Shown: positions 51,751 through 59,143, counted from the first letter of the stretch. The stretch is 64,000 bases of DNA from an uncultured delta proteobacterium (GCA_963704165.1 CAVPHD010000002.1:1-64000); one strand, 5' to 3'. Notes: generated by a model from the sequence alone, not told the origin. Numbers and translations: made by a program.

Positions 51751-53325
51751 ATGGTCACGAAGGTCGCAAAGAAGGGATCGAAGAAGCTCGCGAAGAAGAG
51801 TTCGAAGAAGGTCGTGAAGACCACCGCGAAAAGCGCGGTGAAGAAGAGCACGCCCTCGAAGCGCCCCGAGCACTTCGACGTCCTGATCGTCGGCGCGGGC
51901 ATCTCCGGAGTCGGCGGCGCCTACCACCTGCAGGAGCAGTGCCCCGGCAAGAGCTTCGTCGTGCTCGATGCGCTCGAGAGCTTCGGCGGCACGTGGCTCA
52001 CGCATACCTACCCGGGCATCCGCTCCGACAGCGATCTCTATACCTTCGGCTACCGCTTCAAGCCGTGGACGACGGCACCCGTCGCGACCGCCGACGAAAT
52101 TTTGAAGTACATGGGCGAGGTGATCGAGGAGAACGACCTCGCCCGTCACATTCGCTACCGGCACAAGATCTCGACCGCGTCGTGGTCGAGCAAGGACAAG
52201 CTCTGGACCGTCGAGGCGACGCGCACCGATACGGGAGCGACCTGTCGCTTCACGACGAACTTCCTCTGGATGTGCCAGGGCTACTACCACCACGAGAAGG
52301 GCTACACCCCCGAGTGGAAGGACATGGACCTCTACCAGGGCACGCTGGTTCACGCGCAGACCTGGCCCGCGGACCTCGATTACAAGGACAAGAACGTGCT
52401 GGTGATCGGGTCCGGGGCGACCACGGCCACGCTCGTGCCCGCGATCGCAGGCGCGACGAATCACACGACCGTCCTGCAGCGTTCGCCGACGTACTTCTTC
52501 CCGGCGCCCAACACCAACGAGCTCGCCAACACGCTTCGCTTGCTCGAGATCGACGAGACCTGGATCCACGAGATCGTGCGACGCGGGATCCTGTACCTGC
52601 AGCAGGTGATGACGCGACGCTCCCGCGAAGAGGGCGAGGCGGTGAGGGAGGAGCTGCTCGCCGGCGTGCGCGCGTACCTCCCCGAAGAAGAGGTGAAGAA
52701 GCACTTCACGCCGAAGTACCGACCCTGGCAGCAGCGTCTCGCGTTCGTCCCCGACGGCGACCTCTTCAAGGGCATTCTCGCGGGCAAGGCGTCCGTCGTC
52801 ACCGACGAGATCGACCGCTTCACCGAGAAGGGTGTGCTGACGAAGTCCGGCCAGGAGATCGAGGCCGACATCATCGTCGCCGCGACCGGATTCAGCATCA
52901 GCGTGCTCGGCGACATCGCGTTCACCGTCGACGGAAAGCCGGTCGATTTCCACGACACGATCACCTACCGAGGCATGATGTTCACCGGCGGTGCCGAACA
53001 TGCTCTGGGTGTTCGGGTACTTCCGCGCCAGCTGGACGCTTCGGGTGGATCTCCTCTCCGATTTCGTGTGCCGGCTGCTTGAACCACATGAAGAAGAAGC
53101 GCGTGAAGCAGGTCATGGTCGAGCTGCGGCCCGAGGACAAGACCATGCCGCTGCCACAACTGGATCGACCCCAACGACTTCAACCCCGGCTACCTGATGC
53201 GCTCCATGCATCTGCTGCCCAGGCGCGGCGACAAGCCCGAGTGGCAGCACACGCAGGACTACTGGACGGAGAAGGTCACGATCCCCGCGATCGACCTCGA
53301 CGGCAAGGAGTTCAAGTACAGCTGA
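51751..53325 (+). CDS. Flavin-containing (Baeyer-Villiger/EthA-like) monooxygenase with Lys-rich N-terminal extension; frameshifts near 52.99-53.16 kb
   Basis: DVLIVGAGISG, GGTW..YPGIRSDSD, YQGTLVHAQTWP, IGSGATT, LQRSPTY, ATG; tail FGYFRASWTLRVDL, DFNPGYLMRS. Confidence 0.9.
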
Positions 53326-54678: not shown

Positions 54679-55590
54679 TCAGCCGCGCACTCCGAGGACC
54701 CGCCGCAGCTCCGGCGCCGCGCTCGAGGGTATCGCAAGGATCTCGCCACTCTCCGGCACAGTGTCTGTCACGGCGCGGATCCCATGCTTCCCGACGGCAC
54801 AGAATTCGTAGTCGAGCCGCCGCAACAGATCCAAAACCGTCTCGACGTTGCCGCCGTGCCGATCCCAGTGGCGCTTCCTGTACTCGAAGATGAGGATCGG
54901 CCGGTGCTGCTCCAGGATCGGCCGGAGCTGATCGATCACGATCGTCTCATGTCCCTCGACGTCGATCTTGATGAAATCGCATGTCGGCAGCGGCGCTTCC
55001 CGCACCAGCGTCAGGCCGGAAATCGCTTGCACCTCGATCTTCTCCGTGGTGCCTTCCGCAACGGGCTGGAGGCTCGAGATGCCGGTTCTCGAGGCGTCCG
55101 CCGGCACGGCATGGAAGGACACGGGGCCATCGTGGTCCGACAACGCGGCCTCGACCACGGTCACATGTCCCAGTCGGTTGAGCGCGACGTTTTCCCGAAG
55201 CCGCGCGGCCATCCGCGGATGCGGCTCGACCGCAATGACTCGACCGGATGGTCCCGTCGCCCACGCCATCACCAGCGTATGCGTGCCGATGTTGGCACCG
55301 ACATCGAGGCAGACCGCACCCGGCTTCACCATCCGCCGGATCGCGTCGACGACGAGCGGCTCGTGGCAGCCGTGGAACAGAAGGCGGTAGTCGACCGAGC
55401 GGGAGGTATCGATGTGGATGGAGCCTTGGCCATACGGTGCGACCAAGTGCCGCCCCTTGCCCGGCGCGCCCTTCGGGCACGCCCACGCCGCCACGGCCTT
55501 GCAGAGCTCGTGTACCAAGGGAACGCGTCGCCGCATCACCGGCCGGAGGAAGAGCGCGAGATTCAGAACCCGCTGGTCGCTCCAGAGCAT
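54679..55590 (-). CDS. FkbM-family SAM-dependent methyltransferase
   Basis: LDVGANIGTHT, VIAVEP, FIKIDVEGHE, RPILIFE. Confidence 0.92.
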   Translation of the reverse strand: MLWSDQRVLNLALFLRPVMRRRVPLVHELCKAVAAWACPKGAPGKGRHLVAPYGQGSIHIDTSRSVDYRLLFHGCHEPLVVDAIRRMVKPGAVCLDVGANIGTHTLVMAWATGPSGRVIAVEPHPRMAARLRENVALNRLGHVTVVEAALSDHDGPVSFHAVPADASRTGISSLQPVAEGTTEKIEVQAISGLTLVREAPLPTCDFIKIDVEGHETIVIDQLRPILEQHRPILIFEYRKRHWDRHGGNVETVLDLLRRLDYEFCAVGKHGIRAVTDTVPESGEILAIPSSAAPELRRVLGVRG

Positions 55591-55649: not shown

Positions 55650-56750
55650 CTACGCCTCCAGGCTCCGCACGAACGTTTCGATCGGGCTGTGCTCGCTGGC
55701 GAGCCCGGCCGCTCGGCGTCTCGAAGCGTGCTCGTTCGCGAAGTCGCGGTAGAGCGCGATCACGCGCGGCACGGCCGCAGCCGCCCCAGCGCGATTTCCG
55801 GCGGTGATCAACGCCAGGCTCGAGATGAAGATCGGCGCGCCGAGCAGGGCGACGGCGGAGTTCTCCACCTCGTCGAGGTGGTTGGCGATGGCGGTCGCCT
55901 CGTGCGGTCGCGTCGAGATCAGGTAGCGCATGTGCCCGATTCCGTAGGCGAGCGAGCGCGACACGTCCTGGACGCCGAAGCGCGCGATCGTCTCGTCCGC
56001 CGCGTTCGTCGAGACGGCTCCGACATGGCGCAGCAGCGACTGCATCAGGCCGCAGAGCAGCAGATACCCGGACGCAGAGGCGCAAGGGTAGGTGCTCGCG
56101 TCGAAGACCGCCTTCAGCAACTCGCCGAGCGGAGCATGGTCGCGGCCGAGCCCGGTTCCGCCCGCGATGGCGCGCTTGCGGAAGACGTCCGCGAGCTGGG
56201 CCGCGTCGAACATCTGCGTGCACTGCCACATCTTGAGCTCCACCAGCTCCTGGTTGATGCGCCAGACCCACTTCGAAGGAATGTCGCCCAGGATCGTGGC
56301 CATGCCGGTGAGGTCGGTGTAGAGCTGCGCCAATGCCCGCTCGAAGTCGGGCGAGTGATCGAGCTTCTCGACGGCGTCCCAGGGGACCTGTCGCGACGGG
56401 ATCCAGTGGCGGGCCTTGGACTCCTCGTAGAGCTCGGGCGCATTTTCGGACCAGACCTCGCTCTTGCGATTGATGTCGTAGCCCAGGTGCGGAAGGCCCG
56501 GGGGCTGGACCGCACCGCGCGGTGCCATCGAGTAGTTGTGGCGGATCTTCTCGGGAATCTGATCCCACGAGTACCGGCCGACGTTCGTGTCGCCGAAGGT
56601 CAGCCCGCGCCGCGCGTGACTCGGCCGACAGTTCGCGTCCTCGCGGCCGGACGTCATCCAGTCGAGCGTCAGCTTGCCCTTCAGGATCTCGACCGAGCGC
56701 GCCAGGATCTCCGGGTTGTTGAAGAAGTCGTCTCTCGCGTAGTAGCCCAT
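55650..56750 (-). CDS. Ferritin-like paralog lacking the metal ligands (putative structural subunit)
   Basis: Colinear with 56770-57894 (RRGLT, APRGA, INRKSEVW, VPW, VFRKRA), but DEARH is replaced by DAAQL and DVSRS. Confidence 0.8.
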   Translation of the reverse strand: MGYYARDDFFNNPEILARSVEILKGKLTLDWMTSGREDANCRPSHARRGLTFGDTNVGRYSWDQIPEKIRHNYSMAPRGAVQPPGLPHLGYDINRKSEVWSENAPELYEESKARHWIPSRQVPWDAVEKLDHSPDFERALAQLYTDLTGMATILGDIPSKWVWRINQELVELKMWQCTQMFDAAQLADVFRKRAIAGGTGLGRDHAPLGELLKAVFDASTYPCASASGYLLLCGLMQSLLRHVGAVSTNAADETIARFGVQDVSRSLAYGIGHMRYLISTRPHEATAIANHLDEVENSAVALLGAPIFISSLALITAGNRAGAAAAVPRVIALYRDFANEHASRRRAAGLASEHSPIETFVRSLEA

Positions 56751-56769
56751 TTCGCTTCCTTTCCTCGGC

Positions 56770-57894
56770 TCAGGCCATGATTCCGGCGATCATCCGCTTC
56801 TGCAGCTCGAGCAACGGGCTGCGGGTGCGGCGCTCCGGCAGGCCGGCGCGCTCCGCACGGTGGAAGTACTCCTCGATCTGCTTGCCCTGGAAGGCGCCGA
56901 CCGTCTCGATGCCCTTGCGGATGCACTCCGGCGTGGTGCCCTTGCCGCCGAGCACGATCATCGACTCGAGCTGGTCGGGATTGAACAGACCCGAGAGGTG
57001 CCGCTCGGCCTCGTCGAGGAAGCCGTTGATCTGCGGGCGGACCTCCGGGCAGTTGTCCATCAGGTACTTCAGGTGCTGCAGCCCGTACGAGACGTGCCGT
57101 GCCTCGTCCTGCATCACGAGCTGGAACATCCGCTGCTCGACCGGGGTCGGCGAGATGTACTCGCTCGAGCGGAAGAGTGTCAGGATGAATCCCTCGCCGA
57201 GAACGTGCAGGAAGACGCTGCCCTCGCTGTAGCTGTCGGCCTCGAGGATGCCCTTGAGCGCGTGCTCGCCGCGCACGCTCGCGCGGAACAGACCCGCGCC
57301 CGCGAGCGCCCGCTTGCGGAACACTTCCGCGTGTCGCGCTTCGTCGATCGCCTGCGTGGCGATGAAGCCCTTCACGTCCTGGAAGTAGCTGTTCATGTGG
57401 TGGCTCCACTTCGCCGGCAGGTCGGTCGCGATCATCTCGACCTCGGAGAGCAGAGTGCAGAGCTGACAGAACGCGACCTCGATGTCCTCGGGGATCTCGT
57501 ACTTGTCCATGTCGCTCCAGGGAACGTCGGTCGTCGCGTTCCACTGCCGGCTCATGGCCTCTTCCCAGTAGCTCTGGACGCGGTACGCCCAGACGTCGGA
57601 CTTCTTGTTCAGCGACGGACCGAGGTCCGGCTGATCGGTGCCCTCGGCGAGGATCGCGCCGCGCGGAGCGACGCCGCGATTCTCGCGAACCACGCCGGGC
57701 GTGTTCTCGATCGAGTAGGGGCCGACCTCGCAGTCCTCGAGCGTGAGACCGCGCCGCGGGTCGGCGCGCCGGACCTTCACTTCTTCGCGCGCCCGGTCGA
57801 GCCAACCGAAGTCGAGGTTGCCCTTCTTGATGTCGCGAACGCGGAGATTGAAGTCGGAGTTGTACGAGAAATCATTCGTTCCGTAGTAGCTCAT
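56770..57894 (-). CDS. Ferritin-like carboxylate-diiron protein (putative catalytic subunit)
   Basis: E-x31-ExxH (SEVEM...IDEARH) and E-x29-ExxH (GEGF...QDEARH); QWNATTDVPW. Confidence 0.85.
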   Translation of the reverse strand: MSYYGTNDFSYNSDFNLRVRDIKKGNLDFGWLDRAREEVKVRRADPRRGLTLEDCEVGPYSIENTPGVVRENRGVAPRGAILAEGTDQPDLGPSLNKKSDVWAYRVQSYWEEAMSRQWNATTDVPWSDMDKYEIPEDIEVAFCQLCTLLSEVEMIATDLPAKWSHHMNSYFQDVKGFIATQAIDEARHAEVFRKRALAGAGLFRASVRGEHALKGILEADSYSEGSVFLHVLGEGFILTLFRSSEYISPTPVEQRMFQLVMQDEARHVSYGLQHLKYLMDNCPEVRPQINGFLDEAERHLSGLFNPDQLESMIVLGGKGTTPECIRKGIETVGAFQGKQIEEYFHRAERAGLPERRTRSPLLELQKRMIAGIMA

Positions 57895-57930
57895 GATCGT
57901 CCTCCCGTGCGGGCCTTGCAGGCCTGCTGG

Positions 57931-58371
57931 CTAAGCCCACTCGATCTTGAGATCGGCCGCCTGGTTCACGAATGCCTGGATCGTCGCCATGAAGCGATAG
58001 AACTTGTCGTGCCCCTCCGGATCGTCGTAGACGACCTTCATGCGGTCGCCGACGTGGGAGAGGCTGTTCAGCGTGTGGGACGGCGTCGGCAGTCCGCCGC
58101 CCTTCTGGATCACCTCGAACATCTCCTTCCAGAGCGCGAGCGGAGCGTCGAGCGTGAAGTCGAAGCCGGCGCCGCTGGCGCTCGAGACCTCGCGAACGTC
58201 GGAGCACTCGAAGACGTCGAACTTCAGCGAGTACAAGTGCGGGCTCGTGCCGCTCACCTTCACGCCCATCACCGTGTCACAGAAGCCGAGCTTCTCGAAC
58301 TCGCCCGGATTCGCCTTCATGCGACGCGCCAGCTCCTGGAAGAAGTCCACCGAAGGAAATTTGACCGCCAT
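57931..58371 (-). CDS. SCP2 sterol-carrier-like small protein
   Basis: 146 aa; MAVKFPSVDFFQELARRM, YSLKFDVFEC, FDFTLDAPLALWKEM pattern; AGGAG SD. Confidence 0.6.
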   Translation of the reverse strand: MAVKFPSVDFFQELARRMKANPGEFEKLGFCDTVMGVKVSGTSPHLYSLKFDVFECSDVREVSSASGAGFDFTLDAPLALWKEMFEVIQKGGGLPTPSHTLNSLSHVGDRMKVVYDDPEGHDKFYRFMATIQAFVNQAADLKIEWA

Positions 58372-58406
58372 TGCTTGCTCTCCTCGCTCCGTTTGGTCTT
58401 GATCGT

Positions 58407-59087
58407 CTACGACACGGTCGCGGGCCAGGCCTCGACGCCGAGGTAGCCCAGAAACGCGCGTGTCAGCTCTGCACCCAGCTTCTCGTCCGAGGCGGGAATC
58501 CCGTGGACCCCGCCGTCGCCGAAGAGAATCGCTTGCTCGAGAGTCGCGAGCACGAATCGAAGCCCGAACGCCACGGCCGTCGCCGGATCGGGGTGCCGGA
58601 TCCCCTCGGCCCGTGGCAGCAGAAGCACGCACAGGCGGTCGCTCACGTGAGCCGCCAGGCGTTCCTTGCGCTCGATCATCGACGGCTCGCGCCGCGTGTG
58701 CACCAGAAGTTCGCGCAGCACGCCGCCGCCCGCGCGATAGACCTGCACCAGGAAGTCGACCAGCTCACCGACGATCTCGTCGATGCCAGCGCCGTCCCAG
58801 CGATCGGGATCGAGCGTGACGTCCGTCGTCAGGTGCGCCTCCTCGACGAAGCGATCCTGAAGGCAGTGCAGCACACCCAGCTTGTCGTGGAAGCGCGAGT
58901 AGACCGCGCCGACCGAGAATCCCGCCCGGGCCGCGATGTCCGCGACCGTGACGTCGTCGAAGCCCTTGTTCGCGATCAACGCCTCGGCGCTGTCGAGCAG
59001 GCGTTCGAGCGTCTGTTGGCTGCGCGCCTGGCGCACGGGCTGAATCCAGTTGAAACGGGAGTTCGCGCGCGTATCGGCCAGGTACAT
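58407..59087 (-). CDS. TetR-family regulator
   Basis: RQARSQQTLERLLDSAEAL, TVADIAARAGFSVGAVYSRFHDK. Confidence 0.9.
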   Translation of the reverse strand: MYLADTRANSRFNWIQPVRQARSQQTLERLLDSAEALIANKGFDDVTVADIAARAGFSVGAVYSRFHDKLGVLHCLQDRFVEEAHLTTDVTLDPDRWDGAGIDEIVGELVDFLVQVYRAGGGVLRELLVHTRREPSMIERKERLAAHVSDRLCVLLLPRAEGIRHPDPATAVAFGLRFVLATLEQAILFGDGGVHGIPASDEKLGAELTRAFLGYLGVEAWPATVS

Positions 59088-59109
59088 ACGGGGGATTCCT
59101 GCAGAATTG

Positions 59110-59143
59110 CCAAAACGATAATCGGTATTCAGTTTTTGGTCAA
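59110..59143 (-). promoter_or_regulatory. Sigma70-type promoter with overlapping imperfect inverted repeat upstream of TetR
   Basis: Minus strand TTGACC-17 nt-TATCGT (59143-59115); CCAAAA...TTTTGG arms; AT-rich island in high-GC DNA. Confidence 0.7.

Follow-up and report, generated by a model that had tools for sequence, protein, structure and literature searches.

Dimetal-carboxylate oxygenases perform hard oxidations. In the bacterial multicomponent monooxygenases (BMMs; soluble methane monooxygenase, phenol hydroxylase, and the toluene monooxygenases), an active alpha subunit is accompanied by a metal-free beta subunit, and the operons also encode a gamma subunit, a regulatory protein, and a flavin adenine dinucleotide (FAD)/[2Fe-2S] reductase. 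In PaaABCE, PaaA is catalytic, PaaC structural, and PaaB bridging, according to the excerpted text of PMC4498308. The origin of such catalytic/structural pairs is hard to study in PaaA/PaaC, which are 17% identical (same excerpt), compared with 34% for the pair analyzed here. That pair is encoded in a stretch of 64,000 nucleotides from an uncultured delta proteobacterium (GCA_963704165.1, CAVPHD010000002.1:1-64000; hereafter, the window) and consists of a ferritin-like protein with a complete set of dimetal ligands (alpha) and a full-length paralog without them (beta). A small partner gene and a TetR-family regulator gene precede the two. The alpha/beta family has neither a curated model nor a close solved structure. 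The features of the locus are as follows:

59143-59115, minus strand: match to a sigma-70-type promoter, TTGACC-17-TATCGT (9/12 consensus match)
59113-59130: 18-bp imperfect palindrome, consensus GAA-N4-AATT-N4-TTC, spanning the promoter spacer and the -10 box
59087-58407, minus strand: TetR-family regulator, 226 aa (PF00440, E 1.6e-12)
58371-57931, minus strand: small partner gene, 146 aa, of an unnamed family with weak SCP2 resemblance
57894-56770, minus strand: alpha, R2-like ferritin-fold protein, 374 aa, with six dimetal ligands
56750-55650, minus strand: beta, full-length alpha paralog, 366 aa, with 0/6 ligands

Alpha and beta share 34% identity across 316 aa (E 3e-59); at the profile level, the two families can be aligned over their whole length (370 columns, probability 100). 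A previous reading of this DNA from the sequence alone (the sequence-only reading) had called them full-length paralogs on the strength of several shared motifs, every one of which was found. The six ligands of alpha, E153, E185, H188, E234, E264, and H267 (E-x31-ExxH, E-x29-ExxH), were assigned through motifs and alignment rather than model coordinates; a further Glu, E151, is also invariant and sits a single turn away. All six are present in 77/77 aligned alpha orthologs. Phe192 of alpha occupies the position of the R2 radical tyrosine and aligns with the Phe of R2lox, and the combination of EEHEEH and F192 occurs in 78/78 alphas, the window's included. The residues of beta at the six ligand columns are A, A, L, C, V, and S, in agreement with the earlier description of beta as intact but ligand-less. 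The 71 aligned betas retain 0 (n = 50), 1 (n = 11), or 2 (n = 10) of the six ligands, partial retention being found mostly in Binatia-type betas. No open reading frame (ORF) with three to five ligands occurred among 148 full-length diiron-like ORFs (77 alpha type and 71 beta type), an alignment that left out fragments and distant ferritin-like matches.

Beta is under purifying selection and is not decaying. Among the window and 14 close orthologs (104/105 pairs, with one near-identical pair dropped), the median ratio of nonsynonymous to synonymous substitution rates (dN/dS) was lowest for alpha (0.083) and about equal for beta (0.160) and the small protein (0.158); these values are rough given a dS of 0.4 to 1.5 in GC-rich DNA. 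Beta orthologs are 344 to 379 aa long. The dN/dS ratio and the retained length rule out beta as a pseudogene or a gene under relaxed selection, the latter having been named in advance as evidence that would count against the sequence-only reading. Conservation in beta nearly equals that in alpha over residues 1 to 125 (0.66 versus 0.67), is somewhat lower in the first ExxH helix (0.74 versus 0.86), and is lower still in the other three metal helices (0.56 to 0.58 versus 0.77 to 0.81); 43 near-invariant columns are common to alpha and beta, and 44 are near-invariant in alpha only. Such a pattern is expected of a scaffold. The R2 dimer interface consists of the N-terminal helix and the first ExxH helix, and conservation of beta where R2 dimers meet fits that role. 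Trp118, Asp263, and His188, which we take to be the equivalent of the R2 electron-transfer triad, are invariant in alpha. Because Trp118 and Asp263 are equally invariant in the metal-free beta, these two residues appear to be structural.

A scan of GTDB genomes returned 227 stretches encoding a relative, and the best 80 of these 227 loci were analyzed (a few genomes are represented twice). The small, alpha, and beta genes are adjacent in 68/80 loci, in the order small-alpha-beta in 42 and small-beta-alpha in 26. The lowest pairwise identities across triads were 46% (alpha), 36% (beta), and 35% (small protein). Lack of conservation of the triplet, another outcome that the sequence-only reading had listed as speaking against it, was therefore not found. 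Seven of the other 12 loci are cut by a contig end, two carry beta 2 to 3 kb away, one has no beta within 6 kb, and in two the small gene was not detected. The three proteins diverge in a correlated manner (Spearman 0.86 to 0.92 over 64 triads), as expected from linkage alone, and this correlation is not counted as evidence of binding. Beyond the triad, no neighbor family is widespread across the 80 loci, and there is no conserved biosynthetic cluster. Just upstream of two Binatia triads, on the opposite strand, lies a gene with a 4Fe-4S ferredoxin motif (L055:5026-5499 and L057:1563-1964).

The taxon labels of the 80 loci are mostly uncultured Myxococcota and Binatia, with no cultured host among them; several labels look unreliable. 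In a phylum sample, the small gene was found in 15/201 genomes, all within the window's own class, while a second phylum sample (3/151 genomes positive) was not informative. The window's own genome (G000) contains a second triad in the order small-beta-alpha (contig C6, 56298-58970). It sits between enoyl-CoA hydratase-like and wax-ester-synthase-like genes, named from sequence motifs. In total, 1256 relatives were retrieved at an E value of ≤0.001. A plasmid collection gave one partial match (38%), a phage collection gave none, and no sequencing run contained more than 0.15 of the query words. In four RNA libraries (from four studies), contigs of relatives cover all four genes, and one contig spans alpha, the small gene, and the 3' end of the TetR gene; such contigs cannot show transcription.

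The pair appears to have arisen within its own family. Trees were built with FastTree on 98 nonredundant rows and with IQ-TREE in quick mode (LG+G4) on a 44-row subset, and the two agree. Window-type betas form one clade (support, 99) that is sister to their alphas (joint support, 98 to 99), and the combined alpha-beta clade is nested among six-ligand proteins. Because beta is sister to alpha, the pair arose inside the family, which bears out the independent evolution proposed in the sequence-only reading. A second ligand-poor clade (96 to 100) is sister to a different six-ligand clade (98 to 99). A single clade of all ligand-less rows was rejected (delta log likelihood, 87; approximately unbiased test, p-AU 0.0017), with the caveats that groups were named after the first tree, that the simpler model over-rejects true clades, and that the root is the TusA-fused clade of the family. 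P0173 and P0164 represent a six-ligand sister clade with an N-terminal TusA-like domain (PF01206, above the cutoff in P0173 and just below it in P0164).

The second six-ligand clade is represented by 13 metagenome loci, whose betas stand outside the trees. A ligand-poor paralog lies directly behind alpha in six complete pairs and in one pair with a partial alpha; of the remainder, four loci are cut or fragmentary, and two have no beta next to alpha. A homolog of the small gene occurs in only 1/13 loci. Second-clade pairs of alpha and ligand-poor beta are found at L102:2536-4992, L103, L104, L107, L108, L110, and L111, and some second-clade betas carry extra N-terminal domains (P0134, P0159, P0171, P0186, and L110). 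At L105:1415-5625, the place of beta behind a second-clade alpha is taken by two FAD-oxidoreductase-like genes together with a PF02036 SCP2 gene. Judging from the tree topology and gene order, an alpha-only ancestor likely gave rise to the active-plus-inactive pair on at least two occasions. The architecture, known from PaaA/C/B and the BMMs, was reached independently here, and probably twice. With 34% identity between alpha and beta, a beta-less form in the same genome, partly decayed betas, and a seeming double origin, the question of how alpha-beta pairs originate becomes directly testable in a laboratory host, as three or four proteins, all small and soluble, would be involved.

No Pfam or NCBIfam model reached its cutoff for the alpha, beta, or small protein of the window. 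Scans of family members gave weak matches only, the best being to the R2lox model (77/77 alphas and 19/72 betas). The alpha model (predicted local distance difference test [pLDDT] score, 81.7) retrieved R2lox first in Foldseek (E 1e-3). In the VIA structural ranking, the leading matches were VlmB (Z 23.8, root mean square deviation [rmsd] 3.2, 258 aligned residues, 18% identity), R2lox (Z 22.0, rmsd 3.7, 253 aligned, 15% identity), and ADO (Z 21.9, rmsd 2.3, 209 aligned; another ADO entry, 20.4), the ADO matches extending over the core bundle. These were followed by a phenol hydroxylase chain (Z 20.9, rmsd 3.4, 269 aligned), R2 (20.8), and methane monooxygenase (MMO) hydroxylase chains (Z 20.6, rmsd 4.2, 289 aligned; another, 20.0). 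PaaC (16.4), acyl-ACP desaturase (15.6), BoxB (14.3), and AurF (14.1) ranked lower, and ferritins, Dps, and Mn-catalase reached only Z 10 to 12. Identities over all structural matches were 8 to 18%, and a single-sequence PDB search with alpha gave no significant match. The modeled fold therefore places alpha, as a prediction, with R2-like O2-activating dimetal proteins, as a member of none of the families compared. By the tests run, alpha and beta are not R2lox, BMM, or PaaA/C proteins. The earlier statement that neither paralog falls within a characterized family agrees with this result, as Pfam and NCBIfam scores stayed below cutoffs and the PaaA_PaaC and Phenol_Hydrox models match other genes of the genome. 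A literature search limited mostly to nonsubscription papers without supplements (genome surveys could list these genes) did not find the cassette described.

Alpha resembles R2lox in having four Glu and two His ligands and a Phe at the radical-Tyr position. In contrast, its score against the NCBIfam R2lox model was 26.6 bits versus a cutoff of 194 (best of 77 members, E 1.9e-8). The cross-linked residues of R2lox are presumably V72 and Y175 in GkR2loxI; by sequence offset without superposition, the Tyr-Val cross-link positions correspond to the invariant A156 and R242 (or F241) in alpha. Also by sequence offset, the R2lox channel alanine A171 corresponds to L238 in 78/78 alphas. A Phe at the A171 position blocks ligand binding, as described in the excerpt of PMC4118035. 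Alpha further differs in a conserved N-terminal arm of ~100 residues and in the presence of a ligand-less paralog, none being mentioned for R2lox in the source passages behind this comparison. The haloarchaeal R2lox gene is found in clusters with genes for ferredoxin and a sterol carrier, and hexadecane induces it (PMC9314684, citing Kumar 2020); this arrangement resembles the beta-less operon described below. Work with crude lysates has led to a report of R2lox as an alkane monooxygenase (PMC10867098).

Against the BMMs, the likeness is that a ligand-complete alpha adjoins a ligand-less homologous beta, a statement about sequence and linkage only. BMM chains match alpha at Z 18.6 to 20.9, with the N-terminal region included. 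The differences are that PF02332 (Phenol_Hydrox) gave no match at an E value of ≤0.1, while five other places in the genome match it; that no gamma, regulatory, or reductase gene is conserved in the 80 loci; that alpha is 374 aa rather than about 500; and that the beta of this family arose from the lineage of its own alpha. PaaABCE is similar in combining a catalytic ferritin-like subunit, a structural subunit of the same fold, and a small third subunit (PMC4498308, as excerpted). However, PF05138 (PaaA_PaaC) does not match these genes, and true paaA and paaC lie elsewhere in the genome (G000:C9:309131-310991; 297 and 259 bits). Moreover, no PaaE-type reductase recurs here; as for a PaaB-type bridging subunit, neither Pfam nor NCBIfam gives any match for the small protein.

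Among other diiron proteins, VlmB/"protein 60" (PDB entries 6d9f and 8wvr) is both the best structural match and the best PDB sequence-profile match of alpha (E 5e-4), but the profile match covers only 34 residues around one ExxH, and no conserved biosynthetic cluster is present here. ADO and BioE are ferritin-like diiron enzymes comparable to alpha, with long acyl chains as substrates. ADO differs in its length (~220 aa) and in lacking the N-terminal arm; a ligand-less partner is mentioned for neither enzyme in the source passages used, and BioE was set against alpha by description only. No BoxB model was among the NCBIfam matches of 77 members (structural Z 14.3), and BoxB is a monomer without a structural subunit in the PMC4498308 excerpt. 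For AurF, PF11583 scored 12.6 bits versus a cutoff of 29.6, with 16/77 members at an E value of ≤0.01 (best, 8e-4); the nearest Atlas cluster carries PF11583 on 50% of its members. For class I ribonucleotide reductase R2, PF00268 scored 13.6 versus 33.6 bits, F192 replaces the radical tyrosine, and no R1-like neighbor recurs. Pfam acyl-ACP desaturase models matched neither the window proteins nor the 77 members (structural Z 15.6).

The small gene adjoins alpha with or without beta and is the most constant companion of alpha. The sequence-only reading had called its product SCP2-like; the conserved partner gene stands, while the SCP2 label is not established. The top PDB profile match was Thermus SCP2 2cx7 (E 0.17 and then 0.023 over 31 columns), and among Atlas neighbors, some are named SCP2-domain proteins (0.95), and others have PF02036 on 18% of their members. 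The window's small protein gave a single-sequence model with a pLDDT of 57, for which Foldseek found no match at an E value of ≤0.001; of the 50 rows listed by VIA, none was an SCP2 and the best reached Z 6.1. A model this poor means that the fold searches count neither way. The SCP2 label is thus best regarded as a weakly supported lead from profile similarity.

Simpler forms of the system exist. On contig C3 of the same genome (196325-198271), a beta-less operon comprises a TetR-like gene, a six-ligand alpha', a small', and a 2[4Fe-4S] ferredoxin. It adjoins acyl-CoA ligase-like and thiolase-like genes, again named from sequence motifs. Alpha' and small' occur together in 9/9 inspected loci with this third type of diiron gene, and four further genomes carry a beta-less alpha'-small' pair in addition to a triad. 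Of six weaker small-gene matches from the first phylum sample, one stands alone, and the other five each immediately follow a six-ligand alpha', no beta lying within about 6 kb. A divergent homolog at L095:5706-6107 has no diiron gene within 6 kb. The C3-type ferredoxin was found in 12/151 genomes of the class (8 of the 12 from one genus), directly behind small' in 12/12, with alpha' visible in 11. Of the forms that this family takes, the C3 operon would be the simplest to reconstitute.

Taken together, we modestly favor the view that the locus encodes a TetR-controlled, alpha-beta-small dimetal-carboxylate monooxygenase that would hydroxylate a hydrophobic carbon substrate with a ferredoxin supplied in trans. 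TetR would repress the promoter via the observed 18-bp palindrome until a ligand accumulates. Alpha, whose ligands are in place, would load two metals (Fe/Fe or Mn/Fe) and pair with beta over the surface of an ancestral alpha2 homodimer, as the descent by duplication and the conservation pattern of beta suggest. Beta would likely be the structural half of the alpha-beta dimer, and the small protein would likely deliver a water-insoluble substrate or bridge the subunits. Electrons could come from a ferredoxin encoded elsewhere, for which the C3 2[4Fe-4S] ferredoxin is a candidate, its linkage being seen for the beta-less operon only. O2 activation at the reduced centre would then lead to hydroxylation of a carbon substrate that is long-chain or hydrophobic in some other way, by analogy with the fold neighbors R2lox, ADO, and the BMMs. 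The sequence-only reading had proposed an independently evolved hetero-oligomeric oxygenase, desaturase, or epoxidase for a hydrophobic substrate. That proposal is partly supported: the absence from known families, the conserved triplet, the selection on beta, and the origin of the pair within the family all stand.

A broader claim is put forward more tentatively and is somewhat doubtful, namely, that the triad is a third independent class of hetero-oligomeric dimetal oxygenase besides the BMMs and PaaABCE, in which a carrier protein serves as a subunit of its own and a metal-free structural subunit arose by duplication at least twice within the one family. If true, the evolution of MMO-type alpha/beta pairs could be followed in a living series of beta-less forms and half-decayed betas (0 to 2 ligands), and widespread uncultured bacteria of soils, sediments, and marine habitats would oxidize a hydrophobic compound in a new way. 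The substrate would reveal what these uncultured Myxococcota and Binatia oxidize.

Several observations weigh against the hydroxylase proposal. VlmB, which heads the structural ranking, has azoxy synthase in its title, a name that denotes N-oxidation chemistry, and the top five VIA rows lie within 3 Z units at 12 to 18% identity. An R2lox-type channel cannot be assumed, as the A171 equivalent is the invariant Leu238. The triad has no conserved reductase or ferredoxin neighbor (4Fe-4S motif in only 4/80 loci), and 5/80 loci deviate from the triad with no contig end to blame. The lipid component is also exposed. Neighbors with apparent lipid-catabolic functions differ between loci, and the lipid inference leans on the SCP2 label, itself weak: 0/71 small-protein members match PF02036 at an E value of ≤0.1, the window's small protein is not among the six PF02036 matches of the genome, and hhalign of the small-protein profile against these six genuine SCP2 proteins gave a probability of 1.5% (E 0.035).

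The alternative that survives best, although we consider it unlikely, keeps the same alpha-beta-small architecture and assigns it another chemistry: desaturation, C-C cleavage of acyl-CoA/ACP (as in BioE and ADO), epoxidation of aryl-CoA (PaaABCE and BoxB), or N-oxidation (VlmB and AurF). In the excerpt of PMC4118035, metal identity is not readable from the ligand set, and the six-ligand set does not separate these chemistries. VlmB ranks first and ADO third by structure, and there is precedent in BioE, which cleaves C14 to C18 acyl-CoA/ACP via a ferritin-like diiron centre (PMC12704756). The acyl-CoA ligase-like and thiolase-like neighbors of the C3 operon and the enoyl-CoA hydratase-like and wax-ester-synthase-like neighbors of the C6 triad are also in keeping with it. 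However, desaturase, PaaC, BoxB, and AurF fall far below the R2lox, ADO, and BMM chains in the structural ranking, aryl-CoA epoxidation has its own paaA and paaC elsewhere in the genome, and no biosynthetic cluster is conserved around the triad.

Less probable still is that beta acts as a separate pseudoenzyme, whether as a ligand-binding sensor, a metal-loading chaperone, or a dominant-negative regulator of an alpha homodimer. In its favor, the fold can do without beta, since close six-ligand relatives have the small gene and no beta; the evolutionary rate of beta is about double that of alpha; beta is displaced or missing in 3/80 loci; and betas of the Binatia type, in which parts of the first ExxH survive, might retain the ability to bind one metal. 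A structural partner of alpha is nonetheless better matched by the tight linkage in both gene orders, by the focus of beta conservation on the N-terminal arm and first ExxH helix common to alpha, including the 43 columns near-invariant in both, and by the appearance of the same pairing in a second clade. Finally, a non-oxygenase role as a radical-generating or oxidase/peroxide-handling dimetal protein, like class Ic R2 or an R2lox-type oxidase, is very improbable: the Glu first ligand and the Phe at the radical-tyrosine position are common to Mn/Fe proteins, Trp118/Asp263/His188 is invariant in alpha, and 77/77 alphas weakly match the R2lox model, but the R2lox and PF00268 scores lie far under their cutoffs, no R1-like gene recurs in the loci, Trp118 and Asp263 look structural, and the ferritins, Dps, and Mn-catalase match poorly.

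Transcriptional control of the proposed monooxygenase is suggested by the upstream region. The sequence-only reading had described four minus-strand genes with gaps of 35, 36, and 19 bp (TetR/small/alpha/beta) behind a TTGACC-17-TATCGT promoter, and the layout is exactly so. The GC content at third codon positions is 0.86 to 0.92, and Shine-Dalgarno-like runs precede the small, alpha, and beta genes. Two promoter-grade sites occur in 7 kb versus 0.5 ± 0.7 in shuffles, and orthologous loci keep TTGAC or a near match and a -10 region at the equivalent place upstream. With ≤2 mismatches, the palindrome is present in 14/14 upstream regions (window and 13 TetR-bearing orthologs) versus 1.8% of 3000 random 220-nt genome windows, although the pattern was derived from the very upstream regions in which it was then counted. 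The palindrome is likely the operator of the TetR, as judged from its position and recurrence. As a four-gene operon, the unit holds for its small-alpha-beta part, while the TetR part is restricted to the nearest clade. A TetR ortholog (>50% identity) is found in 14/80 loci, all of that clade, which rules out TetR as a family-wide member of the cassette.

Beta is followed, after 59 bp, by an FkbM-family methyltransferase gene (54679-55590, minus strand), and a terminator-like site was not found in the interval; this gene is absent from the recurring neighbors of the triad and was rejected as a cassette member. Farther along, the frame of a flavin monooxygenase-like gene (51751-53082, plus strand) seems to stop early. 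Its apparent C-terminal part lies in another frame (52900-53250, plus strand), a possible frameshift or assembly error. Elsewhere in the 3.9-Mb genome, there are at least six more distant loci with ferritin-like proteins or diiron motifs, some in tandem:

G000:C11:228536-230274, distant ferritin-like/diiron-motif locus
G000:C4:324082-325161, distant ferritin-like/diiron-motif locus
G000:C1:211533-212501, distant ferritin-like/diiron-motif locus
G000:C11:157101-158075, distant ferritin-like/diiron-motif locus
G000:C3:441205-442422, distant ferritin-like/diiron-motif locus
G000:C4:355565-356132, distant ferritin-like/diiron-motif locus

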